In this document: positions 3,710-45,144 of the stretch, one piece after another
Layout: every line of letters begins with the position of its first letter
Position numbering within the stretch: the stretch's first letter is position 1
Virus record (IMG/VR): IMGVR_UViG_3300022562_000659
Source of the DNA: a virus
Lineage: Duplodnaviria > Heunggongvirae > Uroviricota > Caudoviricetes
Length of the DNA: 49,285 nt
Reading direction: 5' to 3' (one strand)
The notes under the pieces: model-generated
What the model was told of the DNA's origin: nothing
Databases searched by the model: none
Seen by the model: the letters and a program-made list of their open reading frames with translations, nothing else
Program-made: the position numbers and the translations under genes

Positions 3710-3725
3710 CAGTAATACAATACTG
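3710..3725 (+). promoter_or_regulatory. ATACAA-loop hairpin, copy 1
   Basis: CAGTA-ATACAA-TACTG upstream of the 3764 gene. Confidence 0.7.
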
Positions 3726-3763
3726 AAAGGAGTTAACTAAATCCATATAAAAGGAGGTAAAAA

Positions 3764-4354
3764 ATGCCTGCAACGTTCTCATGGCTCCAGTATACAGGAT
3801 CAAACGCGGCGTCAACTACGCCGGGTGGATCAGGAACAACTGGAACCTCATCATCTAACTCAATGTCTTGGGACTTTGAAACAGCAGATAACACAGGTAC
3901 TACTACATATACTGCTAACCCAGTAAGTGCGGGAAGTGCTTCCTACCCTGTATGGATCAAGGGACTATGGACTAACTCCGTTGCGTATACAATTTCAAAT
4001 TTGAAGTTCTGGCAGTTCAATCCAGCGGCTTCGTCTGCTAACACAGCGTCGTTCACAATCTTTGGACAGACACAGAACTCTTATTCGATTGCAACTGGTA
4101 CAGCGACAGGAACAGCTTATGCCTCTAACGTATCTGTTCCAACAAGTACTTCATCTACAGGATCACCGGGCGCACCAATTACTGGCCTTGGATCATACGC
4201 CACTTCTGGCGCTGGTTCGGGAGTAAACGGAACCGGAGCATCAGGAACAAACACACCGGGTGGATGGTTGTCACTACAGTTGTCTGCGGCTGCTGCTGCA
4301 CCGGCTGGTACAACAGGCTACTTCGGATTCACAATGCAGTACGACGAGCAGTAA
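3764..4354 (+). CDS. Ser/Thr/Gly-rich protein, probably virion-associated
   Basis: Strong AGGAGG RBS; very S/T/G/A-rich beta-type sequence; function inferred only. Confidence 0.55.
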   Translation: MPATFSWLQYTGSNAASTTPGGSGTTGTSSSNSMSWDFETADNTGTTTYTANPVSAGSASYPVWIKGLWTNSVAYTISNLKFWQFNPAASSANTASFTIFGQTQNSYSIATGTATGTAYASNVSVPTSTSSTGSPGAPITGLGSYATSGAGSGVNGTGASGTNTPGGWLSLQLSAAAAAPAGTTGYFGFTMQYDEQ

Positions 4355-4449
4355 TTGCTCAAAACTAGGTCTGCCAGTAACCAATGTCTTACGCCTAGAA
4401 ACCTGTGCAAAGAAGCAGATAGCATAGGTATTTAATTTTGAAACTAAGA

Positions 4450-4465
4450 CCGGGATACAACCCGG
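4450..4465 (+). promoter_or_regulatory. ATACAA-loop hairpin, copy 2
   Basis: CCGGG-ATACAA-CCCGG just upstream of the RBS of 4484. Confidence 0.7.
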
Positions 4466-4483
4466 CACAGTAAGGGAGACAGA

Positions 4484-6022
4484 ATGGGTAAAGTACAGGG
4501 TGTAAATGTTGTTGTCGGTATTCCTTCGTTTGGAATGGTATCGACTTATTTTCTACAAGCAAGAGCTGCACATTCATTTCCGCTAGTATCAAGTGCAATA
4601 GACAAGATCGTGCTAAACAAGCCTATCGCTGAGGCACGAAATGAAATCGTGGAATTTGCATTACAACAAGGGGCTAATTATATCTATTGGTTAGACGATG
4701 ATGTTATCGCGCCCCCGGATTCATTCCTTAAGTTATATAGACATAATAGGGATATTATCAATGGTGTATATTGGTCGAAATCGAATCCCCCCATGCCCCT
4801 ATTGTTCAGAGGGCACTTGCAGGGTCCTTATTGGGACTGGCACATTGGGGACCTCATCGAAATTGATGCTGCTGGTAATGGGCTTACGCTTGTCAAAACG
4901 GACGTGTACCGAAAGATGGAGAAAGAGCTTGGAGGCCCGTGGTATTCAACTGACTACGTATCCTTCGCAGGAGTTGACGGACCAAGCGCGCCCAATAACA
5001 CCGAAGACCTCTATTTCTACTGGAAAGCGAAGAAATTAGGCTACAAGATTTGGGCGGATACAAGTGTTCAAGCATATCACTACGAGAAAAATTCTCAAGT
5101 ATTGTATGGAATGCCATCCAACTCACCACAGGCACACCCTGCTTTTGAGGTGAAAGGTCCCGGCAATAAACTGATAGCAGATATTGGTTCTGGACCCGTT
5201 ACCCCGTATATGCGGGATGAAGGCGAGGTGGTATCCTTTGATATACGAGAGGATATGAAGCCTGATATTGTTTGTGACGTGCGCTATCTTCCAGTACCGG
5301 ATCAGACATTTGATATTGTCTTCTCATCCCACACTTTAGAACATTTTCCATGGACAAGTGTGGATAAGGTCTTAAAGGAATGGTCAAGAGTATTGAAGGT
5401 TGGAGGCGAATTACGTATCGCTGTTCCTAATCTTCGGTATACGGCTGAACGAATTATGAATGATACCCTGCTTCCTACCGACTTTTGGGTACTGTATGGA
5501 GAGCAGGATTATGCGAAGAATTTCCATGCTTCAGGATTTACTCCAAATCTGTTAAGAGCATTGGTGGAATCACTTGGCATATTTGATAATATTCAAACCA
5601 AAGAGGGAGATATTTCGGGACCGCCGGACCCTAACTCCTGGAATTTACTATTGAAGGCTACAAAGATAAGACACCCGAAGACAGAAAATATTACACCCGA
5701 GGATATTGATCCTTCTCCTGCTTCACAGACATGGTGGCCTGTTAAGTTATATGATAACTATAATGAACGGCCAATAACTGAGGAAGAGATTAGTAATGAT
5801 TTGGTGAAAGACAAGATCGATACTTCTGAGGAATTGGCAACTGATCGCAAGAGAGCGGTTGTTGAAGGTCGAAGTGCCTTTGATTTCGCAGTATTTAATA
5901 AGTCTGAAATCTTGGATAGTCCTAGGGATGAAAAGCCGCAATATGATAAAGATACAATAATGGATGAATTCAATACAATGAATCAGGAGGAAAAGGATAA
6001 TGGGTTGGAGAGCAATAACTAG
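4484..6022 (+). CDS. GT2 glycosyltransferase fused to a class I SAM methyltransferase
   Basis: N-terminal EARNEIV and YWLDDDV; C-terminal ADIGSGP, FDIVFSSHTLEHF and LKVGGELRIAVPN. Confidence 0.88.
   Translation: MGKVQGVNVVVGIPSFGMVSTYFLQARAAHSFPLVSSAIDKIVLNKPIAEARNEIVEFALQQGANYIYWLDDDVIAPPDSFLKLYRHNRDIINGVYWSKSNPPMPLLFRGHLQGPYWDWHIGDLIEIDAAGNGLTLVKTDVYRKMEKELGGPWYSTDYVSFAGVDGPSAPNNTEDLYFYWKAKKLGYKIWADTSVQAYHYEKNSQVLYGMPSNSPQAHPAFEVKGPGNKLIADIGSGPVTPYMRDEGEVVSFDIREDMKPDIVCDVRYLPVPDQTFDIVFSSHTLEHFPWTSVDKVLKEWSRVLKVGGELRIAVPNLRYTAERIMNDTLLPTDFWVLYGEQDYAKNFHASGFTPNLLRALVESLGIFDNIQTKEGDISGPPDPNSWNLLLKATKIRHPKTENITPEDIDPSPASQTWWPVKLYDNYNERPITEEEISNDLVKDKIDTSEELATDRKRAVVEGRSAFDFAVFNKSEILDSPRDEKPQYDKDTIMDEFNTMNQEEKDNGLESNN
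5968..5983 (+). promoter_or_regulatory. ATACAA-loop hairpin, copy 3
   Basis: ATTCA-ATACAA-TGAAT abutting the AGGAGG RBS of 6000; lies inside the upstream CDS. Confidence 0.7.
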
Positions 6023-6515
6023 AGATTATGAAGAACTGCGTGAAGAGACTCACGGCAGACCAGTACAAGATGGTGAAGAAGGAAAACTTCTTATTATTGC
6101 TCAAGAGGATTTTGGTAGAACTGTTGCAGTAGATTTAGTAAATGGTATGATCGCCATAGACTATGAGCGCCTGGGAATACAGAATAATTCTATTGAATTA
6201 GTTAATGATAAGTTTAGGTTTTTAATTTGTGAGGAAACAAATATTGCAGGGGAGTTTATGCATCTTTCCCAAGAGCTTGTAGACTTGCGCGATGAGAACG
6301 GGCGTAGGATATTAGGACCCGATGGAAAATATCAGAGGGTACGAAATGACGTATTGACCCCACTCGTATGGCGACCTATTTGGTTCACACGTTGGACAAA
6401 TGGGGTGCCCGTGAAAGTAATTGGAGCGCAGACCACGCTTCCTACTACACAGAATAGCAAGAATGTAAAGAAAATGATCATACTTTATCCGGATGGGCGA
6501 GTAGGGATAGATTGA
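6000..6515 (+). CDS. hypothetical protein
   Basis: 171-aa ORF with AGGAGG RBS, overlapping the end of the upstream gene. Confidence 0.75.
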   Translation: MGWRAITRDYEELREETHGRPVQDGEEGKLLIIAQEDFGRTVAVDLVNGMIAIDYERLGIQNNSIELVNDKFRFLICEETNIAGEFMHLSQELVDLRDENGRRILGPDGKYQRVRNDVLTPLVWRPIWFTRWTNGVPVKVIGAQTTLPTTQNSKNVKKMIILYPDGRVGID

Positions 6516-6522
6516 GGTAGAC

Positions 6523-8484
6523 ATGGAGAAATTCAAAGTAATTATACCACTGCTAACAGTTTTTCTTATGGTTGGCATTCTGTTCAGTGCTTCTGTTAGT
6601 GCCAGCCCACCACATAAACCGCATCCAACCAAAAAGCCTAGACCAACCCCAACACTAGTTGTAACTCCCGCACCTACCCCAACACCTACTCCGACACCGA
6701 TTATTACTCCTTCTCCTACGCCCGTTATTACTCCGTCACCTACTCCAGTAATAACTCCTAGTCCTACTCCGATTATTACTTCGAGTCCTACTCCAGTAGT
6801 AACACCACCACCGACTCCGGTTATCACACCAAGTCCAACTCCCGTGGTTGATCCAATGCCGAACACTGACTTGGATGGATGGAAACTTATATTCAATGAT
6901 GACTTCACAAGTGATCTTGCTCTAGGACAATGGCCGGGACCATATTCTGGACGCTGGTGGGCGTATCCTTCTAACTGGAGAGATACCAGTCAGAATGGGA
7001 CCTATTCTCCGGATATTATTTCGGTTGCTAATGGAATATTGGACGTTGGAATAAAATACGAGAACGGGTTATACAAGGTCGCAGCTCTTGTACCAAATGT
7101 TGTAGGTACAGACGATGACCAACTTTATGGAAGATACTCAGTACGATTCCGTGCTGATTCTATGGCTGGTTACAAGGGCGCATGGCTCTTGTGGCCGCAA
7201 TCTGAAACATGGCCGCGCGATGGGGAGATAGACTTCCCCGAAGGAGCATTCGATGGAACAATCTCAGGATATGTGCACCATCAGGGTGCTACCTCTTCAA
7301 GTGATCAGGACGCATTCCATACAGGAGCCACATGGCAATCATGGCATGTTGCAACAACTGAGTGGAGTCCGAACCTTGTCAGTTTCTATCTGGATGGAGT
7401 CCTAGTAGGTTCCACCACAACACGAATTCCGAATACTCCAATGCATTGGGTATTGCAGAATGAGACTAGGGTATCTGGTGGATTGCCGGATACTTCAGTA
7501 CAAGGACATGTACAAATAGATTGGGTTGCAGTATGGTCATTAATAGCGCCGACTCCAACCCCGACACCCGCACCGACTCCGACACCCGCTCCTACACCTA
7601 CCCCAGCACCCACAGCAACGCCCCCAAGTACGGGAGTGACAATTGTGGCCGTTGGAGATATTCATGGTGAAGGCTCAGATTCGGATTCGGTAGCAACTAA
7701 AAATCTTACAACGTCTATCAATCCTAATGCTATACTTGGATTAGGAGACTACCAGTACAATTATGGTACTTGCTCAAACTTTATGACCACTGGAAGATAC
7801 AACAGTGATTGGGGAACACTACAGAATAGACTATATGCTACTCTTGGTGCTACTCATGATTACAATGGAACCAGTGAAGCAGCAAGATATATGAGCGGTG
7901 ATTGTACGGGACAGACAAACGGAGATACCGCTGGTGCCTCTCTTCTAGGAGGAACGCAAGCGGCAGATGTTCCATACTCATTTGATATTGGTGGTTGGCA
8001 TATTATTCAACTTCCATCTTATTGTTTTAGAACAGGAGGTTCTTGTTCTATTGATTCGATCAATACTTGGTTGAAGGCCGATCTTGCTGCTCATCCGACA
8101 GCATGTACGATAGCCTACTCGCATGAACCGTATTGGACAAGCCCATCAAGTGGGCATAATAGAACGACAACCATTCGACCTTGGATACAAACACTCTATG
8201 ATAATGGAGTGGAAATGTACCTATCAGGACACCAACACAACTATGAGCGCTTTGCTCCACAGAATCTAAGCGATGCTGTTGATCCTATAGGAGTGCAGCA
8301 GTTTGTTGTTGGAACAGGAGGAATTGGTTTCTATAGCAGATCAAGTACTGCTGCCAACAGTTTAGCCTTTCAATCTTCTCATTATGGTGTGCTAAAGTTG
8401 ACTCTTCTAGCAGATAGGGCTGATTATGAGTATATATCAACTGATAATGGGTATAGTGATTCAGGAACAGTTGTTTGTCATTAG
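6523..8484 (+). CDS. secreted GH16 glycoside hydrolase plus metallophosphoesterase, with Pro/Thr linkers
   Basis: N-terminal signal peptide; WPRDGEIDFPEG (GH16 ExDxxE); GDIH, LGDYQY, SH and GHQHNYER phosphoesterase motifs. Confidence 0.85.
   Translation: MEKFKVIIPLLTVFLMVGILFSASVSASPPHKPHPTKKPRPTPTLVVTPAPTPTPTPTPIITPSPTPVITPSPTPVITPSPTPIITSSPTPVVTPPPTPVITPSPTPVVDPMPNTDLDGWKLIFNDDFTSDLALGQWPGPYSGRWWAYPSNWRDTSQNGTYSPDIISVANGILDVGIKYENGLYKVAALVPNVVGTDDDQLYGRYSVRFRADSMAGYKGAWLLWPQSETWPRDGEIDFPEGAFDGTISGYVHHQGATSSSDQDAFHTGATWQSWHVATTEWSPNLVSFYLDGVLVGSTTTRIPNTPMHWVLQNETRVSGGLPDTSVQGHVQIDWVAVWSLIAPTPTPTPAPTPTPAPTPTPAPTATPPSTGVTIVAVGDIHGEGSDSDSVATKNLTTSINPNAILGLGDYQYNYGTCSNFMTTGRYNSDWGTLQNRLYATLGATHDYNGTSEAARYMSGDCTGQTNGDTAGASLLGGTQAADVPYSFDIGGWHIIQLPSYCFRTGGSCSIDSINTWLKADLAAHPTACTIAYSHEPYWTSPSSGHNRTTTIRPWIQTLYDNGVEMYLSGHQHNYERFAPQNLSDAVDPIGVQQFVVGTGGIGFYSRSSTAANSLAFQSSHYGVLKLTLLADRADYEYISTDNGYSDSGTVVCH
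6640..6850 (+). repeat. Pro/Thr linker repeats ((V/I)ITPSPTP)
   Basis: Tandem 8-aa units in the translation; a second (PT)n/PA run lies near 7548-7625. Confidence 0.85.
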
Positions 8485-8493
8485 GAGGGCACA

Positions 8494-8802
8494 ATGAAAA
8501 AGACTTTAATATTAGGACTAATTTTAGCATTAATTTTTGCACTGCCTGTAGCAGCAAAAGGTGGAAAGAATGCTTTTCCCTATAATGTTACAGTAGAGCA
8601 AGACCTTGCACTAGTTTCTACCGATTCTTATGGGTGGCTGAAGATACAGACTCCATGTGTTATCGGGTGGGTTAACTTAGCACCGGGAGACAGTGCCGTT
8701 CCATTCTCTAGGAATACAGGATGCGAGGGCACATACTCATTCACAATAACTGATACAAGAGGAAAAGCGCTTGCTGCTCCATTTGTTTTTGTATTAAATT
8801 AA
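8494..8802 (+). CDS. small secreted protein
   Basis: MKK-hydrophobic-AxA signal peptide, two Cys, GGAGG RBS. Confidence 0.7.
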   Translation: MKKTLILGLILALIFALPVAAKGGKNAFPYNVTVEQDLALVSTDSYGWLKIQTPCVIGWVNLAPGDSAVPFSRNTGCEGTYSFTITDTRGKALAAPFVFVLN

Positions 8803-8810
8803 ACCTGATA

Positions 8811-8846
8811 TAACTAATACAATAGTTATCCTAAATCCAATTAGGG
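8811..8846 (+). promoter_or_regulatory. tandem ATACAA/ATCCAA-loop hairpins, copies 4 and 5
   Basis: TAACTA-ATACAA-TAGTTA followed by CCTAA-ATCCAA-TTAGG. Confidence 0.7.
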
Positions 8847-8867
8847 GGCGATTCGCTTGAATAGAAC

Positions 8868-8914
8868 AAAAGACCAGAGACTCATCAGAAATGGTGGCTC
8901 TCTGGTCTTTTTTT
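8868..8914 (+). terminator. rho-independent terminator, possibly bidirectional
   Basis: AAAAGACCAGAGA...TCTCTGGTCTTTTTTT. Confidence 0.85.
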
Positions 8915-8954
8915 GCTTTTCATCCCGAAATTACGGGGGTGAGAAGTTGACGAT

Positions 8955-11900
8955 ATGAGTATAACTTATGTTGGAGCCGCTTATGCCGCTAGCACTAGTG
9001 TAACTCTGCCTTCATTCACACCTGGTGATATAGCCTTTGTATTGGCAGAAAATTTTACCTCAACCGCTATTTCTGCGCCCTCTGGTTGGAATATTCTTGA
9101 TTATGATGATACTACTGTTTCAAGTACCCCAAGAATGGTCGGATACAGAATTCTTCAGAGCGGGGATACAACAACTGGAACATGGACGGGATCAGTTGCT
9201 ACCACGGTTATTATTTATAATGGTGCCCATCCTATTCTCCCAATAGATGGGTTGGCAATTACAAGAAGTGCGGCCTCTTCTACAACAATCACTGCTGCGG
9301 CTTTAACCCCCGCATATTCAACAACAGTACCGATTGGACTGATGTTTTCAAGTAGCCAATTGGCTAATGCTTATAATTACGCTCCAACGTCGATGACTAA
9401 CCATACATCGGCGCTAGCGTCTGGATACGCTGGCTCTGCTGGTGCCTCTGCTGGTGCATATGCGGGCGGAACATGGACTTCAGCTCTTAGTGCTGCATAT
9501 AATTCTTATACAATTGGTCTTCGTGCTCAATCAGTATTTCCTATTATTGCGGATGATGATACCACTTCTGGTACACAAACATCTAACTCTACCTCATGGA
9601 CCCTTACGTATCCTAACAACATCAGTGCTGGTGATATGCTTATTGCAATAATCGCTTCTGATGGTGGTTCAGGCTATGTGCAGAATGTTCCTTCGGGATG
9701 GCCCGATGCAATATGGAAATACAATCAGGAGTCAAGTAGTGGTGCTAACGCTTTGTCATTTGGAAAGCGTATTTGTACGGGTACAGAGTCAGGCAACTTT
9801 ACTGTAACTATGAATGCTTCCGAGCAGGGTTCATGGATCATTTATAGGATACCTGCTGGTACTTGGTATGGAACAGACCCTTCTGGATCATTTGTAAACT
9901 CTTCATCAGATAGTGTAGTACGAACTTCAACAGGTGGCACTAGTGATACTCCCGATCCCCCGAGCCTTGATCCTGCGGGTTGGGACGCAGAAAATACTTT
10001 ATGGTTAACATTTATTGGCGTTGATACAAGCCGTACTGTTTCTGCCTTTCCTTCCTCACCGGACACATTCACTAATACAGATTCTTTAGTTTCTGGTGGT
10101 GCTAACGGTTCAACACTTGCTTGGGGCCGATTGGAAAAGAATGCGACTTCGGTTGATCCTGGAACATTTACAATTTCAACAAGTGATGACTGGAATGCTA
10201 TTACTATTGCTGTGCGCGGTGTTTTATCCTTTACGTATTCAGCACAGGCACAAGCAGAAGTTGCATCTGGTGGCCCAACTACAACCCGATTCCATGCTCA
10301 AGCCCAATCCGATATCAAAACTACATACAATAGTTTTGCGCAATCAAATACAGATATTCTACAGGTATATCAAGTCTTTGCACAGGCGCAATCAGATATC
10401 AAGGCAACCTATCAATCCTATGCCCAAGCCCAAGCGGCCCTTATTACGACGCTGCAAGGATTTGGACAAGCACAAGCAAATATACTTGCTAAATATAATG
10501 TATTTGCTCAAAGCCAAGCAACTATTAAACAAGTTTATACGGTATTTGCTCAAGCACAGGCAGGAATAAAGCAGACATATCCGTTTGGTGGCGGAGGATA
10601 CTCTACAATTGTCAGAGAAACATTCACCAGTGGTGGAACAGGATCAGCATCCAATACCCACTCTGTAAATGCCCCATCAGGCTTTACGACGGGTGATGTT
10701 GTTGCTGTAACAATTGGCCTAAACGGATCATCTATAAACAGTGTTCCAACTGGATTTGCACTCGTTGGATCGGCTACAGGACAGACAAATCCCAAGGTTT
10801 ATGTATACGTTGGAAAGTATGCTGATGTTGGTGCCGGTCCTTGGTCTTGGGGATCAACTGCTTCTATCTATGATGGATGGATTTCCGCTAGATATAGTGG
10901 TGTAGATCAAACTACAATCCAAGACGTTACCGCAGTCGGTACGGATGGTGCTGCACCCGGTACGGGAGATTTCAACCTCACTGGTATTACTACTGTAACT
11001 GATGGTGCAATGGTTATTGCTGGTGTAGCGACTAACTCATCATCAGCAGATCAGATAGTTGAAGATAACTTCCTCACTGAGATAGCCGCTGTCTTCCAGT
11101 CAAGCGCCATCAAGAATACTGAAATGGATGATGGCACTAAGACAACTGCTGGTGCTACTGGATTGCTGCACTATACGTTGAATAGCAACGTTGCTTATGC
11201 AGGAGTTGTTGGCGCACTTCGTCCAGCCTCAGGTGGTGGATCAGTTGTTGGTCCGACCTTTGCCCAAGCGCAAGCATCTATCATTAAAACTAAGCAAGTA
11301 TATGCACAGGCACAGGCAAGTGTTCTGACAGCCTACCAAGTATTTGCTCAGGGACAAGCAGATATACTTCAAGTTTATGCAGTATTTGCTCAGGCTCAAT
11401 CTGATATTCTACAAGTATATCAGGTATTTGCGCAAGCGCAAACATCTATTGTTACTACACTGCAAATATCAGCGCAAGCGCAAGCGCAGATAAAACAGAC
11501 CTATCAGGGTTATGCACAGGCTCAAGCAAATATTAAAACAACGTATACAGTATTTGCTCAGGCACAAACTGATATCAAGCAGACATATCCGTTTGGTGGA
11601 ACCACTACCGTTTTAGAGGATGATTTTGCAGGCAGTGGAAATTTGGCTGGATCGGCTCTTATTACTGGTGGTAACTGGAGCGGTGGAACCTATTGGACTT
11701 CTGGCTCGGGTAGTGTAAGTGCTACTAGAACTGGAGTCGCCCATTTAAGCAAGGGTACTCCTTCAGGTACACTCAGTTATGGTCATCGTGCCGGTACTGC
11801 TACCCATAGTGATTTTGATATATTTATCACCGATACAGGTGATGGATACTTTGAAGACGATGGCCTTTTTACATATAACACCCGTAATCTGGCTATCTGG

Positions 11901-13595: not shown

Positions 13596-13596
13596 G

Positions 13597-18045: not shown

Positions 18046-18122
18046 CTCCCCGTGGCGCAATCGGATAGCGCGAGAGACTTCTAATCTCTAGGTTGCAGGT
18101 TCGAATCCTGTCGGGGAGGCCA
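18046..18122 (+). tRNA. tRNA-Arg(TCT)
   Basis: AGAGA-CTTCTAA-TCTCT, CCA. Confidence 0.93.
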
Positions 18123-18143
18123 ATTTATTTACAGGAGAATGGC

Positions 18144-18344
18144 ATGGCTTACGGCGTACAGTATGAGGAAAGTGTACCTACGTGTCCCAAGTGTGGATGC
18201 CGGTTAACGTATGCAGGTGATGGATTTTTATCCCATTTTATTTGGGGCGAGAAAGACGCTAGGGGATGCAGATGTTCTGATCTATATAGGTACTGGTATG
18301 TAAATAAGGAGAAGGTGTCAGATGCTAAACCCACTAGATTTTAA
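18144..18344 (+). CDS. small zinc-ribbon-like protein
   Basis: CPKCGC and CRC; ATG 18144 after AGGAG. Confidence 0.6.
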   Translation: MAYGVQYEESVPTCPKCGCRLTYAGDGFLSHFIWGEKDARGCRCSDLYRYWYVNKEKVSDAKPTRF

Positions 18345-33816: not shown

Positions 33817-34086
33817 ATGGGAATAGATTTTACACCAAACCAAGTTGTTTGCCCGCATTGCAACAAGCAATTTATCCACAATAAGGTTAATGGAATCGCG
33901 CTACTTGAGATAGCGCAAGGGATTGAGGCACGAAAGAGAATGCATTGCAGACTCACTCTTGATGCTGTTGAAAAGATATTCAATGGAGAGGTTCCTAGAC
34001 CTATAAAGAAAGCAATTCTTGACGGATATAATGATCTTGCTCGTGATATGCACACAATACTTGGGTTTGGGCAGGAAACCGAATAG
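33817..34086 (+). CDS. hypothetical protein with CPHC
   Basis: 89-aa ORF with RBS. Confidence 0.6.
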   Translation: MGIDFTPNQVVCPHCNKQFIHNKVNGIALLEIAQGIEARKRMHCRLTLDAVEKIFNGEVPRPIKKAILDGYNDLARDMHTILGFGQETE

Positions 34087-34099
34087 GTGGTGATGTAGT

Positions 34100-35062: not shown

Positions 35063-35071
35063 GAGGTCAGT

Positions 35072-35533: not shown

Positions 35534-35628
35534 TCTAACGATCTGACAGACGCACGCGCAGAACGTTAGTCACAGGATGAGGAAAGGGAAGTTACATGAC
35601 AAATCCCACAAAGGAGTGATTATAGATT

Positions 35629-36837: not shown

Positions 36838-36894
36838 TATTTACACTTAGGGGCATATTCACACTGAGTGTAAATATGGCAAATTAGTGAATAT
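36837..36894. repeat. nested direct/inverted ATATT(T/C)ACACT repeats, possible pseudoknot
   Basis: ATATTTACACT and ATATTCACACT, then inverted AGTGTAAATAT and AGTGAATAT (coordinates within about 1 nt). Confidence 0.6.
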
Positions 36895-36923
36895 TGGGTA
36901 TGTAGACAAATGTTTACAACAAT

Positions 36924-36954
36924 GGGGAGCAGTCAAACGGCTGCTCCCCTTTTT
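36924..36954 (+). terminator. rho-independent terminator after the major tail gene
   Basis: GGGGAGCAGTC-AAAC-GGCTGCTCCCC followed by TTTTT. Confidence 0.88.
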
Positions 36955-36978
36955 AATTTTTTGTTGGAGGAAACGGTA

Positions 36979-37689
36979 ATGGGAAAGATAAGTAAACTGT
37001 TGAAGTGGGGACACAAGGTAACATTGCGTGATGCAAACAGCAAGGTTCTTATGGACGTATGGATTAGAATTCTGGATGATGATAATCTGGAAGAAGCCTA
37101 CCTTGATGCTCGACTAGCATCCGCAGAATATAGAGCGGAGTTGCGCGATCCTAAATCAAAGAAGCACCAGGATGATATCGCCAAAATAGAAAAGGCTTCA
37201 AGAGAAGAGTGTATGAGCCTTATCAAAGCAGCTAAGGGTGGAAACCTAACAGCTGAAGCCTTTTCCAATGTAGTTCGTCCTGATCTGCCAACAATAGCAG
37301 AGATTGCTATTGATCCTGACGCTCCAACGCTGGAGGAACAGGAGAAACTGGACACTGCAATTAGTAAGATCAATGATGAATATGCCAAGGCAATTGATGA
37401 ATATGTTGATACAAAATCAGCAGAGATTGATGAGGCCATGGCACATATGACAGATGAGGAATTAAGAGAGGCCGCGAAGTCTTCCACGATTGATCTTCTT
37501 GTTCTCACATTATTCATCAAGCGTGTGCTGGATGAAAAGGTATGGAGAGGAACATTTGAAGATCAAAAATATAAAATTCCTGGATTTGAATCATATGAAG
37601 ATTTTCTATCAACTGATTCTGGCATCAAGGATCAATTGCGTGAGGCATATAATGACCTTGAGATGAGTCCGGAAGAGATAAAAAACTAG
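36979..37689 (+). CDS. tail assembly chaperone (G-like)
   Basis: ATG 36979 after GGAGG; acidic and helical; ends at a slippery site. Confidence 0.75.
   Translation: MGKISKLLKWGHKVTLRDANSKVLMDVWIRILDDDNLEEAYLDARLASAEYRAELRDPKSKKHQDDIAKIEKASREECMSLIKAAKGGNLTAEAFSNVVRPDLPTIAEIAIDPDAPTLEEQEKLDTAISKINDEYAKAIDEYVDTKSAEIDEAMAHMTDEELREAAKSSTIDLLVLTLFIKRVLDEKVWRGTFEDQKYKIPGFESYEDFLSTDSGIKDQLREAYNDLEMSPEEIKN
37680..37686 (+). other. programmed -1 frameshift heptamer A-AAA-AAC
   Basis: Immediately before TAG; the -1 frame (CTA GCA GAG...) is open into the 37710 ORF. Confidence 0.85.
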
Positions 37690-37979
37690 CAGAGGGTAGC
37701 CCATGGGGAGTGATATTGGAATTGTCCAAAATCATGGGGCTGCCCTTGATGCCATCGCTGGATATGACAGCAATGGAAATACCCCACACAATTTCCTACG
37801 CGATCTTGTATCGTGAGAAGATTAATAGTTTCAATGAGTTGCCGAAGGACAAGCGCCCACCGAGAAATCTATGGGACAAGCCGTACAAATTGCAGTTGTT
37901 CTTTGACGAGGTATTTGATTATGGCAAAGATAAATCTAGTACGGAGTTTATAGAGTTTGACTTAGACGAGGTGGAGTAA
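37686..37979 (+). CDS. tail assembly chaperone (T-like part of the GT fusion)
   Basis: Reached by -1 frameshift; lies directly before the tape measure gene. Confidence 0.75.
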   Translation, partial: LAEGSPWGVILELSKIMGLPLMPSLDMTAMEIPHTISYAILYREKINSFNELPKDKRPPRNLWDKPYKLQLFFDEVFDYGKDKSSTEFIEFDLDEVE

Positions 37980-37981
37980 GC

Positions 37982-40900
37982 ATGGCTAGACGATTAGCAG
38001 CCGATCTTGTTATTAATACGGGCCAAGCCAGTCAAGCCTTAGCTGCATTTGGCAATAATCTAGATGGAGTTAAGAGACAAGCACAAGTGCTTGGGGCTGC
38101 TAGCAACGCTATTGCTGGAAAGAATTTTGGACTCGCCGGTTCTGGTATTATTGATCTTAAGGGTGGGGGACAATTAGAAGCCAGAGTAGAGGCCATCAAT
38201 AGATCCTTTGTAAAAACAGGTAATACAATTAAAACTGTTTCACAACTTATGGGGCAGTTTATCGATGAGAATGGAAATGCGCAGCGACTTGTTACTGGAA
38301 CCGTAACATCATATGAAGGTAACGTAAGTCGTATTATCGAGGCACAAGGAAAAATTGCTGCATCTGCTGATAAAGTATCCAGAATTGAAGATCAGCGTTT
38401 AGCAACTGTAGAAGCAATTACGCAAAACTATGAGCAGCAGAAGAGGATTTTCAATCTTCAAGGTGCAAATGCTCAATCACGTCAAACAAGAGCGCAAGCA
38501 GATATCAATAATATTGCAACCGCACGACAGCCATTTGATGCGGCTGTGGTCGGTGCGCGAGGCGCATACGATAAAGCCGTTCTACTTGAAGCCTCACTTA
38601 GAGCAAAAGGATCTCCGGAATTAGCACGCGCAACTGCTGCTAGAGCATCTGCTGAAGCACGTTTGGATGCTGCAATTCTTGCGCAGACTGCAATCTATAC
38701 AAGCACGCAGGGTCCTCTTGATAATGCTAAGAAGAAGTTGTTAAAAGCAATTGGCGATGAGGCAAGAGCAGCTGCCGATTCCGCAGTAGCGGAACAAGAA
38801 GCCAAGCGTCAAATAAAGGCTGCAAGATTGACTGCCAACCTTGAAAGAAAAGCACAGGGTGTCACAACTCCAGAATTGAATGCACTTGATCAGCAATTGT
38901 ATGCTGCACGTACTTCAGTACCTGAATTGCCAAGACAGATTCAATATTTGCAGGGGGCAGCTCCTAATCTTTTGAGAAGATTGGAACAGGCAGGATTAGG
39001 ACAACCGGGCGGTGCAGCAGTAGGCCCATTTGGTCGTACTATTGATAGAAACTCAGCCGACTATGTTAAAAATCTCATTAGTCAGGAAGCCTATGAGGGA
39101 ATCAATATTCAGCGTGATCTTGTACGTCAGGTTACAAGAGTATCGGGATCATTCAAAGATGCTACGGGACTAGTACAGACATTCAATGCTGAATTTGATG
39201 CTGCTGGACGCACAATTACCCGATTCGGATCGCAGATGAGTGGGCTTGGAACGATTTTCAGTTCTTTGAAGAGAGACTTCCAGAAGGTTCTTGAATTCGC
39301 TATCGCTACAACCGTGGTATTTGGTGCATTCCGTGCTATTTCAGGACAGTTGAACACAGTCATTGAATTGGATAAGAGTATCCGTCAATTGTCTGTTACT
39401 GCTAACCAGACCCGTGGAGAGGCAACCAAATTGTTTGCTAGCATTGCAGATGCGGCTATCGCTACTGCTACCCCCCTAGAGGAAATGGTAAAAGCAGCAG
39501 ACGATATCGCTCTTGCAACACGTAAAGCAGGACAATCAGCCGATGAATGGAATGCTTCCATTCTATCCCTCTCAACATCTGTAGGAATTCTCACAAACTT
39601 GGCAGGAATTGATACAGTACGAGCAACTGATTTACTTGTATCTACAATGAAGCAGTTGAATCTTGAGGCTGCTGATCTTCCCGGCGTTTTGAATAAAGTA
39701 ACCGCAGTAGCAGGCGGGCAATCTGCTGCTATTGCTGATGTTATTACTGGCCTTGGAAATATGGCAGAAGCCAGCCGTCAGGCCGGATTGAGTCTAGATG
39801 AGACTATTGGTGCAGTACAGGCACTATCTCAGGCTACAAGCAAATCCCCAGCAGAAGTTGCTACTTCGTTCAAGAATCTTGTTGGTGCCCTTGGAGGACC
39901 ATCGGGTGTTAAAGCCTTAGATAAATTTGATATTGCGCTTCGTAATACTGATGGCTCATTAAGAAATATTCTTGAAGTTTATGGAGAAATCCAAGATAAA
40001 ATACAGAAGGGCATAATACCTCAAAGTGAGGTCCAAGGGCTGATACGGGGCATTGCTGGCGGTCCTAGACGTGCCCCTGACGCTGCTGCGCTACTCTCTG
40101 TTATTAAGGACATTGGGGAAGCTGCGAGAAGAAGTGCTGGTGCTACAAATGATGCATTCCTAGCAAATGCAAAGGTACTTGATACCGTCCAAGCAAAACT
40201 TATACAAATTCAAGCACGTATGGACAAGTTTGCAGTCGGAAAATTCGGAACAGTTATTCGTGAAGTCAGTGAGAGTTTCCTAGATGCCTTCCAAAAAGTG
40301 CTTGATCTTGTAGAGGTCATTCCTTCAGGACTCATCACATTCGTTGCACAAATAGGCGCATTGGCAGTTGCGGTCAAACTAGCAGCCAGCGTGGGCAAGA
40401 TATTCCTTGGCACCCTACTTGAAATGGGTGGAGCATTTAGAAAACTTAAATTAGATATTGATTCTGCTAGGGGCGCACTAGCCGGTTACAGTGGAGCAAC
40501 TGCTAGAGCAAATGCTAAGAGTGCAATTACAAAAGGATTAATAAAATCTGGAGGCGCTGCTGCTATTGGAGGCGCTATTGGTGCAGCCGCTGCGGCTAGT
40601 GGTGGGGCAAGCCCATTACAGATTGCAAGTTCTGGATTGGAAACAGCAGGATTAACTTTGTTGTTTGCCGCACCTATTCCGCACGCCAAACTATTAGGTG
40701 GTGCGTTACTTGCAGTTGGTACAGGTCTTAGCCTTGTCACTGAGGAAACAAAGAAAAGTACTACTGCTATTAATGAGAATAGTGAGGCTGTTCTTAATAA
40801 TTATGGTGCATTCCATGAAGCATCAATTGTACTTCAGGGATTAGAACAAGAACGTAGTAATCTAAACAAAACTATACAAGAGATAGAATTAATCCCCGAA

Positions 40901-43237
40901 GCAAAAAGAACAACAGATCAGATAGCATTGCTTACCAGTGCTGAAACAGATTACGCTAATGCAACTCGTAATGTAATCGAGGCAAATAATGCTCTCAATC
41001 AATCTTTTGAAGCATTAAGTGATGCGTTGTCAACACTTCCTGATTTTCCTGAATATGAAATTAATCTTGCTAAGGCAGGATTACTCAACCAATCGGGACT
41101 AGAAAATCTTATTAGGGACCTGTCTGTAAAGTTTATTCAACAAGCAAATCCTGATTTCCAGCCCGCAGGAACCTTTACTCTTAGTGGTGGAATCCGATCA
41201 ACACAAACAGGATTTGAGCAGATACCATCCATATTCCCTTCTGGACGTACACCAGATTTTGCCACAACTGGAGGCAATATCAGTAATCCAAACGGATTCA
41301 ATCTTAAAAGCCTAGCAACAGATGCTCAAAAGGTTAAGGAATTATTTTCTGAGATTGGAGAAATTAAAAAATATGTATTTTTTGGTGAGGGAGATAATCT
41401 ACAATCTGAATATAGTTTCCTACCAACACCTGAAAATCTGGATCGTGTACGTACTGCCCTTTACTCAATCAGGGAAGAAGTTGATCCTGAAAAATTCAGA
41501 ATCATGGCTACCTCATTGGATCAATGGGCAGCGTCAGTTGCACCAGCGCAACAACTAACGAATGTTATTGAAGAATATTCGGGGTACTTATCAGCATTAG
41601 AAGTTGCTGATCCATTTGTAAAACCTGAAGATATAAAAAGGGCTAGAGAAATTCTTCTCATTTATAGTGCTATAGCACAACTTGCTACAGGTGAAGATCC
41701 ACGCCCCTCTACATCAGGAGCTCCCGGTAGGGAAGGTGGATCAATTGGTAGAACTCAGGCGCAGCGAACAAGAGATAGGGAAGAAGCATTAAAAGTACTA
41801 AATGAATTTGCTTTTGATTCTGAAACAAATCAACCACGACTTGAGCCACGAGTAAAGGAAGAATGGCTTGAATTAGCTAAGGCCGTATTTATTCTTAATG
41901 GAGAATATGATAAAGCTAATGATAAAATATCCGTATTTGAATTAGCAAAAAGTTACGCGGATGCTGCTGGAGAATCTGTCGATGGATTGACCGAGGCTAT
42001 GAATGCATTTGGTTTATCAAGTGAAGAGGCTGCGCAGAAAATTGCTGATTTGCAAGAAGCAATGAATGAATTTGCTGATAAAGCACAGGCTGATCTTGCT
42101 AATCGTTCAGCCGAACTAGCTGCTTCATTCCAAGCTGGAGATATATCAGAAACAGACTACAACACACAAAACGAAGAGATAAAATCACAAGTTCGTTTAA
42201 TTAGGAATTTGAGGGATGCGTATAATGAACTTGCTGAGACTCAGCAGGATTTGGATACTTCTTCATTTGGTGATGTATTAGGCCAATTTGATAAAGAAGG
42301 ATCTAAACAATTTATTAAAGACCTTAGAAAAATTCCTGGATTAGAAGATGCAGCTTCCCTATCAACATTTGAATTAATCCAACGTATGTCTGCATTAGCT
42401 GAAACATATGGATTAACGGGAGATCAAACTGATGTTCTAGGTAAAAAACTGTCTAAACTATTTGGTGCCCTTCAAACTATTTCTAAATATAGAGCAAAGA
42501 TCGGTGTTGGAGTAGAGGTTGATGTAGGGGCACTTATTAAAATGTATAAGGCCCTTAATAAGCCTATGCCAATTATTAGTTCAGGATTAATTGTTGGTTA
42601 TACTGGTGGTGGAGCATATTCTGGCATAATCAAAGAACTGGAAGCGGCACAAACAGTTGTCAGTAAATCTGGTTCTTCAATTGGCAATATTTATCGTGCT
42701 GGTACAGGTGGAGGATCAAGAACCACTAGTGGTGGTGGCGGCAGCAGTAGAAGAAAGGGAAAGGACGTATCAACTGTTGATCTTCCCGATGAAATTGCTG
42801 ACGCATATAATCGAAGCTCACTTATTAGAGAAGCCATCAAGAGAGCTCGTGCATTGCAGCGCCAGATTCCAGGTGCAACAAAGGATGCAAAGAATGATAT
42901 TGTTGAATTGCTGAAAGGAACACAACGTATTCTAGAGGTACGTGGAGTAAAGGATGACTATCTACGTAAGGCACTTGAAGAATTGGCTGATATTGAGAAG
43001 AAAAGACTTGAGCAAGAAACAAAAGCAGATGTAATCAGACGAATTCGTGTCGGCGGGGGAGACTTCTCCGCTATTGCTAATGTTCCTGTCAATTCAAAGA
43101 CTGGTATCAGTCTTGGTGGTGCAGATGGACCGATCAACATTACATTGAATATGAATGGTACGGTATTAACACCTGCACAGTTTGATCAATTTGCAAACCA
43201 AATAGCAGCCGCACTAAAGCGACAATTAGCGAAATAA
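37982..43237 (+). CDS. tape measure protein
   Basis: 1751 aa, Ala-rich and helical, with a hydrophobic central segment; follows the G/GT pair. Confidence 0.9.
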   Translation: MARRLAADLVINTGQASQALAAFGNNLDGVKRQAQVLGAASNAIAGKNFGLAGSGIIDLKGGGQLEARVEAINRSFVKTGNTIKTVSQLMGQFIDENGNAQRLVTGTVTSYEGNVSRIIEAQGKIAASADKVSRIEDQRLATVEAITQNYEQQKRIFNLQGANAQSRQTRAQADINNIATARQPFDAAVVGARGAYDKAVLLEASLRAKGSPELARATAARASAEARLDAAILAQTAIYTSTQGPLDNAKKKLLKAIGDEARAAADSAVAEQEAKRQIKAARLTANLERKAQGVTTPELNALDQQLYAARTSVPELPRQIQYLQGAAPNLLRRLEQAGLGQPGGAAVGPFGRTIDRNSADYVKNLISQEAYEGINIQRDLVRQVTRVSGSFKDATGLVQTFNAEFDAAGRTITRFGSQMSGLGTIFSSLKRDFQKVLEFAIATTVVFGAFRAISGQLNTVIELDKSIRQLSVTANQTRGEATKLFASIADAAIATATPLEEMVKAADDIALATRKAGQSADEWNASILSLSTSVGILTNLAGIDTVRATDLLVSTMKQLNLEAADLPGVLNKVTAVAGGQSAAIADVITGLGNMAEASRQAGLSLDETIGAVQALSQATSKSPAEVATSFKNLVGALGGPSGVKALDKFDIALRNTDGSLRNILEVYGEIQDKIQKGIIPQSEVQGLIRGIAGGPRRAPDAAALLSVIKDIGEAARRSAGATNDAFLANAKVLDTVQAKLIQIQARMDKFAVGKFGTVIREVSESFLDAFQKVLDLVEVIPSGLITFVAQIGALAVAVKLAASVGKIFLGTLLEMGGAFRKLKLDIDSARGALAGYSGATARANAKSAITKGLIKSGGAAAIGGAIGAAAAASGGASPLQIASSGLETAGLTLLFAAPIPHAKLLGGALLAVGTGLSLVTEETKKSTTAINENSEAVLNNYGAFHEASIVLQGLEQERSNLNKTIQEIELIPEAKRTTDQIALLTSAETDYANATRNVIEANNALNQSFEALSDALSTLPDFPEYEINLAKAGLLNQSGLENLIRDLSVKFIQQANPDFQPAGTFTLSGGIRSTQTGFEQIPSIFPSGRTPDFATTGGNISNPNGFNLKSLATDAQKVKELFSEIGEIKKYVFFGEGDNLQSEYSFLPTPENLDRVRTALYSIREEVDPEKFRIMATSLDQWAASVAPAQQLTNVIEEYSGYLSALEVADPFVKPEDIKRAREILLIYSAIAQLATGEDPRPSTSGAPGREGGSIGRTQAQRTRDREEALKVLNEFAFDSETNQPRLEPRVKEEWLELAKAVFILNGEYDKANDKISVFELAKSYADAAGESVDGLTEAMNAFGLSSEEAAQKIADLQEAMNEFADKAQADLANRSAELAASFQAGDISETDYNTQNEEIKSQVRLIRNLRDAYNELAETQQDLDTSSFGDVLGQFDKEGSKQFIKDLRKIPGLEDAASLSTFELIQRMSALAETYGLTGDQTDVLGKKLSKLFGALQTISKYRAKIGVGVEVDVGALIKMYKALNKPMPIISSGLIVGYTGGGAYSGIIKELEAAQTVVSKSGSSIGNIYRAGTGGGSRTTSGGGGSSRRKGKDVSTVDLPDEIADAYNRSSLIREAIKRARALQRQIPGATKDAKNDIVELLKGTQRILEVRGVKDDYLRKALEELADIEKKRLEQETKADVIRRIRVGGGDFSAIANVPVNSKTGISLGGADGPINITLNMNGTVLTPAQFDQFANQIAAALKRQLAK

Positions 43238-43252
43238 AGGGGGTTCAGAATT

Positions 43253-44017
43253 ATGGGATTGGGTCCAAGCCCGTCTTATCTGGCTAAATACAACTCATAC
43301 ACATTACCCGGCTATGTGCAGGACGAGTCATTCGATTCAACCATGCGTGTTGCTGATCATTATGCTCCCTATGCAGATGGATCAAACTCAGAAATGACTG
43401 GACTTCAAAACAAAATGCTCTCACTTACACTCAAAGTATGGGAAGAGGATTACGCAACCTGCAAGCAACAAGTACAACAGGCTGCCACAATGCTGCGTAG
43501 TAAGCGACAGGGATTCGCTCCGCTCTATGTGCAATATAATACCAAACACTATGATGCGATGGTCAGTTCTCTTAAAGTGGATAAAACCGTAGGTGATAGT
43601 CCTAGAGTTTTAGAGTATCAAGTCAGTTTTCAATGTAAGCCTTGGTTAATTGATGATACAACACAAACACTTACTGGGTCAAGTCTTGCAAGAGTACGAA
43701 CATTTTTTGTCACAACCGGTCGAACGATTGATGACGGTGGCTGGACTCCAACTACTATCACTCTTACTGGAAATGATATCACTGTATCTGGCTATACGAT
43801 CAATGGAGATTTTGCAGGATTTATCAGTGTGTCTGGTATAGTTACAAATCTTGTTGTTGATGCTGAAGCATTCACCGCCCTAGAAGGTACAACAAATAAA
43901 AATAGTTACATGAGATATGCAGACTACCGTGTTTGGACTGGACCTGAAGAAACCACATTTGTAGTATCGGGCGCAACAAGTGTAACAATAGAATACAATA
44001 ACAGATGGTATATATAG
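43253..44017 (+). CDS. distal tail protein (Dit-like)
   Basis: Directly after the tape measure gene; 254 aa; FQCKPW motif and a C-terminal NRW. Confidence 0.65.
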   Translation: MGLGPSPSYLAKYNSYTLPGYVQDESFDSTMRVADHYAPYADGSNSEMTGLQNKMLSLTLKVWEEDYATCKQQVQQAATMLRSKRQGFAPLYVQYNTKHYDAMVSSLKVDKTVGDSPRVLEYQVSFQCKPWLIDDTTQTLTGSSLARVRTFFVTTGRTIDDGGWTPTTITLTGNDITVSGYTINGDFAGFISVSGIVTNLVVDAEAFTALEGTTNKNSYMRYADYRVWTGPEETTFVVSGATSVTIEYNNRWYI

Positions 44018-44030
44018 GAGGTGAGATATC

Positions 44031-45101
44031 ATGGCTGCTGGTGATATAATTTTGAGCGACGGGTTTGATTCTCTATCATTTATAGGTTGGAATTCTGAGT
44101 ACTCTTGCTCGATCAGTAGTTCTTATTCACGGGTAACTAATAGTGGAGCAGGGCTGCATTTTACAAGTACTAATAATGGATTCAACCCAAGCCCTGAATT
44201 GGAGTCTGACACGTTTGCACCAATAGAAGAATTCCTATTGAGTTTTGCATTCAAGATCGGTTTGGTTACTTCCAATCTATGGCTTGTGACTTTTAAGGAC
44301 GGTACAGAAACATCTAATCATCAATGTGCGCTCGTTGTAAACTCAAGTGCGCACATCGCATTTGTTCGACGTAATAGTGGAAACCCTACATATGGAATTG
44401 CTGCAACTTTGGCTGAGGGGTCCACAATTCTTCAGGCCAATAGATGGTATTGGGTTGAAGCAAAAATCAGAGTTAGCAGTACTAATGGGTATGTTGAATT
44501 GAAACTAGATGGAAACACTGAGATATCAATGACAACTTCTCTTGATAGTTCGAATACTGCTAATGATTACGCCACACGTATTAATCTGAATTCGTCTTTC
44601 TCATCTAGCAATACTACAATAGATTATGATGATGTAGTGTTATTTGATAATACTGGAAATACAATGAGTTTCCTAGGGGATGTTCGTATTCTTGATCTAG
44701 TACCTACCGCAGATGGAAACAGTTCTGATTGGACTCCTTCAACGGGAGTAGATAACTATGCAATGATTGATGAATTGCCCCCTGTGGATACTGATTATGT
44801 ATATACAAATACTGTAGGACATAAAGATACCTATGTATTTCAAGACCTTCCAGCAAGTGCAACAACAGTGTATGGTATCACATATGTCACAAGATCGTTC
44901 AAGACCGATGCCGGTACTCGTACACTTAGAAATGTGATGCGGCAGGCAAGTACAGATTATGAGCGCTCTGATAGTGATACATCAATTTCTCTGAGTCCAT
45001 CAACAGCGTTCTATTCGGAGACAGTCAATCCCGCTACAGCGGTGGCATATACTGTCAGCGATATCAATGGAAATGAATTTGGATTTAAACTACAAGCATA
45101 A
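44031..45101 (+). CDS. baseplate-associated lectin-like beta protein
   Basis: N-terminal ConA-like pattern (WYWVEAK...VELKLDG...IDYDDV); C-terminal PTADG...W...IDE...DTDYV domain. Confidence 0.5.
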   Translation: MAAGDIILSDGFDSLSFIGWNSEYSCSISSSYSRVTNSGAGLHFTSTNNGFNPSPELESDTFAPIEEFLLSFAFKIGLVTSNLWLVTFKDGTETSNHQCALVVNSSAHIAFVRRNSGNPTYGIAATLAEGSTILQANRWYWVEAKIRVSSTNGYVELKLDGNTEISMTTSLDSSNTANDYATRINLNSSFSSSNTTIDYDDVVLFDNTGNTMSFLGDVRILDLVPTADGNSSDWTPSTGVDNYAMIDELPPVDTDYVYTNTVGHKDTYVFQDLPASATTVYGITYVTRSFKTDAGTRTLRNVMRQASTDYERSDSDTSISLSPSTAFYSETVNPATAVAYTVSDINGNEFGFKLQA

Positions 45102-45112
45102 TTTAGAGTAAC

Positions 45113-45144
45113 CATTAATACAATAATGTGTTCAATACAATGAA
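45113..45144 (+). promoter_or_regulatory. tandem ATACAA-loop hairpins, copies 6 and 7
   Basis: CATTA-ATACAA-TAATG, then TTCA-ATACAA-TGAA directly before GGAGG. Confidence 0.7.

Follow-up and report, generated by a model that had tools for sequence, protein, structure and literature searches.

A conserved AUNCAA hexaloop on exchangeable stems marks fibre and glycosylation genes in an uncultured tailed-phage lineage and is a candidate translational control element

The DNA analyzed here, called the window below, is a 49,285-nt stretch of a tailed virus (Duplodnaviria; Heunggongvirae; Uroviricota; Caudoviricetes; IMG/VR record IMGVR_UViG_3300022562_000659), and the element in question is a small hairpin with a six-base loop that recurs just upstream of several of its genes. 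The window has a G+C content of 43%, strong GGAGG ribosome sites and 20 tRNA genes, and every gene lies on the + strand. The terminase, the portal and structural genes are present, together with genes for a glycosyltransferase, a methyltransferase, a thymidylate synthase and a GH16/phosphoesterase protein. No near relative was found among cultured phages by megablast and tblastn. A sequence-only reading of this DNA had described seven hairpins with a shared 6-nt loop and different stems, and all seven are there on the + (coding) strand:

3710..3725, + strand: site A hairpin, CAGTA-ATACAA-TACTG, present in the minimum-energy fold
4450..4465, + strand: site B hairpin, CCGGG-ATACAA-CCCGG
5968..5983, + strand: site C hairpin, ATTCA-ATACAA-TGAAT, inside the 3' end of the open reading frame (ORF) 4484-6022
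8810..8829, + strand: site D hairpin 1, ATAACTA-ATACAA-TAGTTAT, starting 8 nt past the stop codon of a 102-amino-acid (aa) gene
8830..8845, + strand: site D hairpin 2, CCTAA-ATCCAA-TTAGG, the 3' arm of which enters the AGGGGG Shine-Dalgarno of a leader ORF
45113..45128, + strand: site E hairpin 1, CATTA-ATACAA-TAATG, starting 12 nt past the stop codon of a 356-aa baseplate-type gene
45131..45144, + strand: site E hairpin 2, TTCA-ATACAA-TGAA, abutting a GGAGG Shine-Dalgarno

The loops start at 3715, 4455, 5973, 8817, 8835 (ATCCAA), 45118 and 45135. The stems are as they had been described, save that the one around the loop at 8817 has 7 bp (ATAACTA/TAGTTAT, 8810-8829) and not 6. Five site classes are distinguished: A precedes a 196-aa gene, B a glycosyltransferase-methyltransferase gene, C a 171-aa gene, D the largest fibre operon and E the second fibre gene. 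Tandem pairs occur at two loci, sites D and E, and one copy (5968) lies within a coding region, both as earlier noted. The short spacing to start codons holds as well: the hairpin end is followed after 38 nt by the ATG of the gene for a 196-aa Ser/Thr/Gly-rich protein (3764-4354) at site A, after 18 nt by that of a 512-aa glycosyltransferase-methyltransferase fusion (4484-6022) at site B, after 16 nt by that of the 171-aa gene (6000-6515) at site C, and after 15 nt by that of a 1361-aa fibre gene (45160-49245) at hairpin 2 of site E. The end of the 8835 hairpin lies 11 nt before the start of the leader ORF, which had escaped the sequence-only reading.

The motif is far more frequent than expected from chance. 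Hairpins with an AT[AC]CAA loop and a perfect stem of at least 4 bp number eight on the + strand of the window and none on the - strand. The comparison with shuffled sequence, a check that had been proposed along with the motif, gives a clear enrichment: in 300 dinucleotide-preserving shuffles, counted on both strands with stems of at least 4 bp, the mean is 0.40 and the maximum 3. With stems of at least 5 bp, six hairpins are observed versus 0.09 in the shuffles, and ATACAA is the most frequent 6-nt loop among all perfect hairpins of at least 5 bp in the window. The eighth copy, at 44803, has a 4-bp stem, is located inside an ORF without conservation in relatives and is probably due to chance.

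Conservation was followed in three complete IMG/VR relatives with terminal repeats (G001, 119,870 bp; G002, 114,680 bp; G003, 120,336 bp), with an identity to the window of 64-79% in aligned genes, and in 55 metagenome loci collected around orthologues of the 196-aa gene, the related loci totalling 242 kb. The strand preference is the same there: the 242 kb contain 24 ATACAA hairpins on the + (gene) strand and none on the - strand and, over all unique contexts, 30 of the 367 ATACAA occurrences on the + strand are flanked by at least four Watson-Crick pairs, compared with 0 of 192 on the - strand. The five gene junctions that carry the motif are the same in about 50 metagenome contigs and in the three complete relatives (115-120 kb), and a covariance model finds only these five site classes in each complete genome. 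The motif is confirmed as real, conserved, strand-specific and far above chance, and its recurrence at the same gene junctions in relatives upholds the proposal that the hairpins mark a small regulon of fibre and glycosylation genes.

Loop and stem statistics were obtained from a curated set of 55 hairpin copies, picked for pairing. All 55 have a 6-nt loop and a stem of 3-8 bp. Five loop positions (A1, U2, C4, A5 and A6) are invariant in 55/55 and position 3 is free, with ATACAA in 37 copies, ATTCAA in 11, ATCCAA in 4 and ATGCAA in 3. The 55 copies have 45 distinct 5-bp stems, each Watson-Crick pair type is represented within the inner four pairs, and the covariation score is 0.90, versus 0.21 for shuffles and at most 0.30 with a slid partner. 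Because the copies were selected for pairing, stem swaps at orthologous sites and strand asymmetry are less biased evidence than this score.

Such swaps are found at site after site. For site A, the orthologous stems include AGTA/TACT, TGACA/TGTCA, AGGTA/TGCCT (with a U·G pair), TAGCA/TGCTA, CAACA/TGTTG and GATA/TATC. Site B reads GCTAGA-ATGCAA-TCTAGC in G001 and ACTAGG-ATGCAA-CCTAGT in G002, with a conserved ACAGTAAGGAG downstream. For site C, CCGG/CCGG (L031) and ACTA/TAGT (L039) are found, with an identical stem in G002, and the site is absent from G001 and G003. Hairpin 1 of site E has AGAGTTA/TAACTCT in G001, AATTATTA/TAATAATT in G002, CGTA/TACG in G003 and GCTATA/TATAGT in L155, and hairpin 2 has ATCTA/TAGGT in G001 (with a U·G pair, the arm lying within AGGTGGTG) and TTTCA/TGAAG in G002. 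The loop is held at orthologous sites while the stems are exchanged, as foreseen for a structure-specific element with a constant loop on compensating stems, and this covariation is seen in the three complete relatives as well as in the metagenome loci.

The strand on which the structure is kept can be read from the wobble pairs. Counting outward from the loop, the fourth and fifth pairs are G·U in 11 cases and A·C in none, when independent columns would give about 9.5 A·C. G·U pairs are mismatches on the opposite strand, so it is on the sense strand that the structure is kept. The support that this gives to a motif acting as a sense-strand RNA element is modest but consistent. The hairpins are weak, with a median stability of -2.9 kcal/mol and many copies at about -1 kcal/mol, and the site E region folds no better than shuffles. 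Weak stems selected for pairing, together with an invariant loop, form the pattern of a site recognized by a trans-acting factor.

RNAalifold on MAFFT alignments of the leaders of sites A and D yielded hardly any consensus or none, the variable stems being misaligned, and the sequences were therefore folded one by one. The idea that the loop forms a pseudoknot with sequence further downstream was considered and rejected, as no co-varying partner was found. No known motif had been recognized at the outset, and in agreement with this, no Rfam family was found around the sites even at E up to 5; over the whole window at gathering scores, Rfam returned 19 tRNAs and nothing else. The motif class is not in Rfam, and a literature search for an AUACAA loop gave nothing relevant.

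The position of the hairpins is closely tied to that of the ribosome-binding sites. Taking the last hairpin of each site, a Shine-Dalgarno-like motif starts between -4 and +8 of its 3' end in 30 of 40 cases (75%), compared with a background of 35% at 12-60 nt upstream of ORF starts and of 22% at random positions across the genome. The ten exceptions come mostly from one site A subclade. At site C, a single nucleotide separates the hairpin from its AGGAGG. Hairpin 2 of the tandem sites contributes its 3' arm to the Shine-Dalgarno itself, for example in CCC-ATACAA-GGGG, CTCTA-ATCCAA-TAGGG and ATCTA-ATACAA-TAGGT(GGTG).

The most elaborate arrangement is found at site D, in the leader of the largest fibre operon. 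Hairpin 1 is present with a different stem in 13/13 related leaders, and the 3' arm of hairpin 2 in relatives, TAGG(G/A)G or GGGG, is the Shine-Dalgarno of the leader ORF. Three further elements follow the pair:

8857..8958, + strand: leader ORF with a TTG start, 33 sense codons and a stop (34 in total), the stop overlapping the fibre start (ATATGA)
8868..8914, + strand: terminator-type hairpin of 19 pairs in two stacked helices with a GAAA tetraloop, then a T7 run
8915..8947, + strand: masking hairpin, in which GCUUUUCAUCCC pairs with GGGGGUGAGAAGU, sequestering the Shine-Dalgarno of the 1546-aa fibre gene (ATG 8955)

The leader ORF spans both the terminator hairpin and the masking hairpin before the fibre ATG at 8955, and its start lies 7-9 nt after the Shine-Dalgarno. 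The start codon is ATG, TTG or GTG in 13/13 leaders, never CTG. By automatic call, the open frame extends to a few nt from the fibre start in 12/14 (junctions TAATG, TAGATG and TAAATG); in L040 and L048, an alternative start lies nearby, as judged by eye. Hairpins equivalent to that at 8868-8914 occur with different stems in 13/13 related leaders, and analogous masking hairpins in most of them. According to the per-sequence folds, the order of elements is conserved, with different stems, in the 13 related leaders. The region 8803-8960 folds far better than its shuffles (-56.6 kcal/mol, z -5.35). This layout is that expected of a translational-coupling and attenuation leader, and since the ATNCAA pair covers the initiation region of the leader ORF, it would be the control point.

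Site A lies behind a tRNA cluster and a terminator:

3674..3702, + strand: intrinsic terminator with a 9-bp stem, a GCAA loop and a T7 run, after tRNA-Thr and directly upstream of hairpin A

The stems of this terminator co-vary across relatives, and hairpin A starts 10 nt past it. Directly 3' of the hairpin, at 3726-3733 and at orthologous positions in the clade of the window, is a Shine-Dalgarno-like purine run (AAAGGAG in the window; also CAAGGAG and AAGGGAAAGGA) with no start codon behind it; mini-ORFs after this run were considered and rejected as inconsistent. In one subclade (L065:1532-1604; also L045, L056, L062, L067 and L072), an alternative helix of 8-10 bp is predicted between the 5' arm with its flank, CCUGAAAGUA, and the Shine-Dalgarno region, UACUUUCAGG (-10 to -14 kcal/mol, z -3.5 to -5.8, one compensatory change). 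As modelled, this is a two-state leader, in which hairpin formation and ribosome-site exposure are set by mutually exclusive folds. In five other relatives (L032, L037, L051, L055 and L059), no more than about 8 nt separate the terminator from the Shine-Dalgarno of the 196-aa orthologue, with neither a hairpin nor room for a promoter. The terminator abutting the Shine-Dalgarno without promoter space implies that the gene is expressed there via terminator read-through, which suggests a general antitermination of late transcription in this phage group.

Upstream of hairpin B, at 4395-4440, a hairpin followed by a conserved TATTTAATTTTGAAACTA is found in the window and in G002, and G001 has the hairpin without TATTTAATTTTGAAACTA. 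This element may be a weak terminator or a piece of a larger leader.

Similar hairpins were also encountered outside the family of the window. An IMG/VR pattern scan identified a 229.5-kb jumbo phage contig (G004; L199:5300-5480) with two ATACAA hairpins, each with an 8-bp stem including G·U pairs, directly after a terminator; the tandem pair is followed by AAGGAG and the gene of a 512-aa CBM96 carbohydrate-binding protein. Other AATACAAT copies in this contig were rejected as ordinary coding sequence. The only proteins common to the contig and the family of the window are a dCMP deaminase and a thymidylate-synthase-like gene product. Almost no genes are thus shared, and if one factor reads both sets of hairpins, it is not an obvious shared phage protein and may be host-encoded. 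In an 18.5-kb IMG/VR contig (G005; L210:3095-3175), a dual ATACAA pair (GCCA/TGGC and GGCA/TGCC) is separated by 3 nt from the terminator that follows it, and the 5' flank of the pair, CGCA, is able to pair with the terminator 5' arm, a mutually exclusive layout like that of ANTAR targets; with 4-bp stems, this pair may be due to chance. A first viral tandem scan gave at least four loci with both stems: L155, a relative; L106, the jumbo phage contig with 8 + 8 bp; L081, with 4 + 4 bp, possibly a chance pair; and L197, which is of low complexity. A stricter scan gave three loci with both stems, two of them of the same sequence. In bacterial genomes, none of the 120 matches listed combines a stem of 4 bp or more with a second one of 3 bp or more, and no use of the motif by a host genome was detected among them.

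The reading that we favour, with a probability of about one half, is that of a translational operator: an AUNCAA loop read by a trans-acting factor that sets translation initiation. Among the functions put forward by the sequence-only reading, the site for an RNA-binding regulator fits best and the single-stranded DNA (ssDNA) hairpin promoter is disfavoured. The hairpin would be a cis-regulatory element of the mRNA, its weak short stem displaying A-U-N-C-A-A just 5' of the Shine-Dalgarno or overlapping it. A sequence-specific trans-acting factor, most likely an RNA-binding protein, would recognize the loop on any stem and set the initiation of the next cistron. The cistrons under control would be those of the 196-aa protein, the glycosyltransferase-methyltransferase, the 171-aa protein and the two giant fibre operons. 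For the largest fibre operon, the control would be indirect: hairpin 2 holds the Shine-Dalgarno of the 34-codon leader ORF, and ribosomes translating this ORF would melt the terminator hairpin and the hairpin masking the fibre ribosome site, then terminate on the fibre start codon (translational coupling). Action as RNA, binding of a factor and initiation as the regulated step are what we infer from the strand asymmetry, the invariant loop and the adjacency to the Shine-Dalgarno.

Several points weigh against the translational operator. The choice between RNA and + strand ssDNA is decided by the G·U asymmetry and by position, and the hairpin counts take in phylogenetically related sequences, which inflates the significance values. 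At site A, the real Shine-Dalgarno in the clade of the window lies about 25 nt further downstream. The sign of the control is ambiguous, since a stabilized hairpin occludes the Shine-Dalgarno at D and E but frees it in a subclade at site A. Terminator-like hairpins stand before sites A and B and after D, so that models at the level of transcription fit too. Finally, no RNA-binding domain was found with Pfam, PHROG and Atlas in the neighbouring 171-, 102- and 196-aa proteins or in ten small ORFs of the window. The only matches in this search for a binding factor were an HNH endonuclease and a sub-threshold zinc-binding match in an 83-aa ORF. The latter, at 18093-18344, matches the phage zinc-binding family PF23903 with an E of 5e-4, below the cut-off, and is a candidate small nucleic-acid-binding protein only, without a link to the hairpins.

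The first rival is antitermination. In this model, RNA sites of the nut, ANTAR or put kind would be formed by the hairpins, especially those in tandem, and would either bring a factor to the RNA polymerase or act on the enzyme directly, enabling it to read through the terminators of the fibre and glycosylation region. At site D, the dual hexaloop is followed 22 nt on by a strong, conserved terminator in all 13 relatives, and ANTAR targets are likewise dual hexaloops, with A at loop position 1, a linker of 2-25 nt and stems of at least 3 bp (PMC3369931, PMC8164766). The pair of the 18.5-kb viral contig has the same order of elements with a pairable 5' flank, and some relatives require read-through for the expression of the 196-aa gene. 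However, hairpin 2 does not overlap the terminator 5' arm in the family of the window, leaving no mutually exclusive fold there; loop position 4 is C in 55/55, when G4 is the sole base-specific ANTAR contact (PMC8934654); and no ANTAR domain is found in the three complete relatives. Sites A and B lie after, not before, terminator-like hairpins, a processive mechanism would not need as many as four sites in 5 kb of a single block of co-directional genes, and the tight Shine-Dalgarno spacing is left unexplained. This option of the sequence-only reading stays live for the tandem site 8810-8845, and for the motif as a whole it is unlikely. A role in RNA processing or stability seems more doubtful still. 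In this case, a host or phage endoribonuclease would recognize the AUNCAA loop and cut the polycistronic RNA between cistrons, or the hairpin would protect the new 5' end of the downstream mRNA, in keeping with hairpins positioned at cistron boundaries, with those of sites A and B and of the jumbo phage contig just past a terminator-type hairpin, by which the 3' end of the upstream RNA would be protected, and with site A standing behind a tRNA cluster that itself needs processing. Stems of about -1 to -3 kcal/mol are nevertheless poor 5' protectors, no nuclease candidate was found adjoining the sites, and control of initiation is indicated both by the coupling design of site D and by a hairpin 2 that overlaps the Shine-Dalgarno.

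A promoter is the least probable explanation and can be considered very improbable. In one form, TACAAT would be a -10 box for a host sigma-70-type or phage-modified polymerase; in the other, extrusion of the inverted repeat as a DNA hairpin would give a promoter of the N4 type. TACAAT is indeed contained in five copies of the window, as had been noticed, and sites A and B and the pair of the jumbo phage contig stand just past terminators, where a new promoter is expected. A -10 box independent of pairing, which had been named as the outcome that would speak against a structural element, does not agree with the data: loop position 3, the -11 equivalent, varies among all four bases in the 55 copies (A 37, T 11, C 4, G 3), the base after the loop, the -7 equivalent, is C or G and not T in 8/55, and in a consensus promoter scan no hairpin had a -35 or a TG extension. 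Moreover, a start 7 nt after hairpin 2 of D and E would fall inside or after the Shine-Dalgarno, duplex promoters do not select pairing of arbitrary sequence, and the five relatives without hairpin or promoter space express the same 196-aa gene. No sigma-70 region 2 domain (Sigma70_r2) was found in the three complete relatives. The N4-type form is further disfavoured by a loop of 6 nt and not 3, by the G·U asymmetry, which speaks against the template strand, and by the absence of any ORF above about 1,750 aa, the largest ORFs being fibre or tape-measure genes; no match to the T7-type RNA polymerase family PF00940 was found in the three complete relatives, a weak negative, as the control matched nowhere.

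The translational operator can be extended into a broader picture, which we put forward tentatively and hold to be possible with the odds somewhat against it. The AUNCAA hairpins would be a new class of RNA-protein recognition, similar to the ANTAR hexaloop with another specificity (C4, position 3 free) and with a reader that is possibly host-encoded, by which unrelated phages would time or dose fibres and glycosylation enzymes as one translational regulon, including the leader-ORF relay. The relay would couple the state of the hairpins to the melting of the terminator and the unmasking of the fibre ribosome site.

To our knowledge, phage post-transcriptional regulons are known from few models only, such as T4 RegA and gp43, the RNA-phage coat proteins and Mu Com. 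Here, one six-base loop on arbitrary stems tags just those genes on which host recognition depends, namely the ones for three giant fibre proteins and for sugar-modifying enzymes, in a case supported by comparative genomics in an uncultured 115-120 kb phage lineage. If a factor reads the loop, the motif would offer a handle on fibre stoichiometry or timing, possibly a new RNA-binding specificity and a compact tag by which translational control could be carried to other genes. With its dual hairpin, leader ORF, terminator and masked ribosome site, the leader of the largest fibre operon is a testable model of coupled control of transcription and translation.

Among the known systems, the N4 promoter is likewise a short inverted repeat upstream of genes, with a specific loop on a 5-7 bp stem. 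It has a 3-nt loop on template-strand DNA and is used for early genes by the T7-like polymerase domain of a giant virion protein; the present motif shows nothing of the kind. The SAS of Cluster K mycobacteriophages is a 13-bp conserved sequence including the Shine-Dalgarno, and the ESAS are sequence-conserved 17-bp inverted repeats, with a suspected role in translation (PMC3203893). Like the present motif, these are repeats of one orientation at the starts of a gene subset, kept in related phages at the same gene families; in contrast to them, only the 6-nt loop is conserved here and the arms are free.

The lambda nut and HK022 put sites likewise consist of one or two small RNA hairpins in long-operon leaders, placed after the end of a gene and before a terminator. 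In nut, a boxA accompanies boxB, the stem of which is conserved and the loop of which is a GNRA-like pentaloop; put is a two-stem RNA of about 70 nt. The phage motif differs from nut in its AUNCAA hexaloop, its unconserved stems and the lack, in the alignments, of a conserved block 5' of the hairpins. Furthermore, nut and put occur as one site per operon, versus four in 5 kb, and have no link to the Shine-Dalgarno. Closer to the translational operator are T4 gene 43, the MS2/PP7 coat-protein operators and Mu Com-mom, where one hairpin is located next to or over the Shine-Dalgarno or AUG. Binding of gp43 or of the coat proteins turns initiation off, while Com turns it on by opening a masking helix. 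The phage motif shares with the gp43 and MS2 type a hairpin at the Shine-Dalgarno or AUG that is loop-specific and independent of stem sequence. Those systems are nevertheless single, autogenous or restricted to one gene, whereas here one loop, of unrelated sequence, recurs at five junctions and is doubled before fibre genes.

The closest known kind are the targets of ANTAR-domain regulators such as EutV, NasR, AmiR and PdtaR. The likeness lies in short, arbitrary stems of 3-8 bp and a hexaloop with A at position 1 (55/55). It extends in part to the overlap of hairpin 2 with the Shine-Dalgarno at D and E and to tandem pairs, found at these two sites (linkers of 0-5 nt) in the window, G001-G003 and at least 10 metagenome relatives, sites A, B and C being single. 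ANTAR targets are dual hexaloop hairpins with A1 and G4, lying before a terminator or over a ribosome site (PMC3369931, PMC8164766), and a single hexaloop is the minimal binding unit, in which G4 is the only base-specific EutV contact (PMC8934654). In the phage loop, A-U-N-C-A-A, the obligatory G is replaced by an invariant C4, and no variation is seen at U2, A5 and A6 either. Hairpin 2 of the phage is off the terminator stem, which starts 22 nt downstream, and the motif sits in a late/fibre gene context; the ANTAR domain PF03861 gave no match at E up to 1 in the three complete related phage genomes. By analogy, the motif would work like an ANTAR target without being a canonical member of that class.

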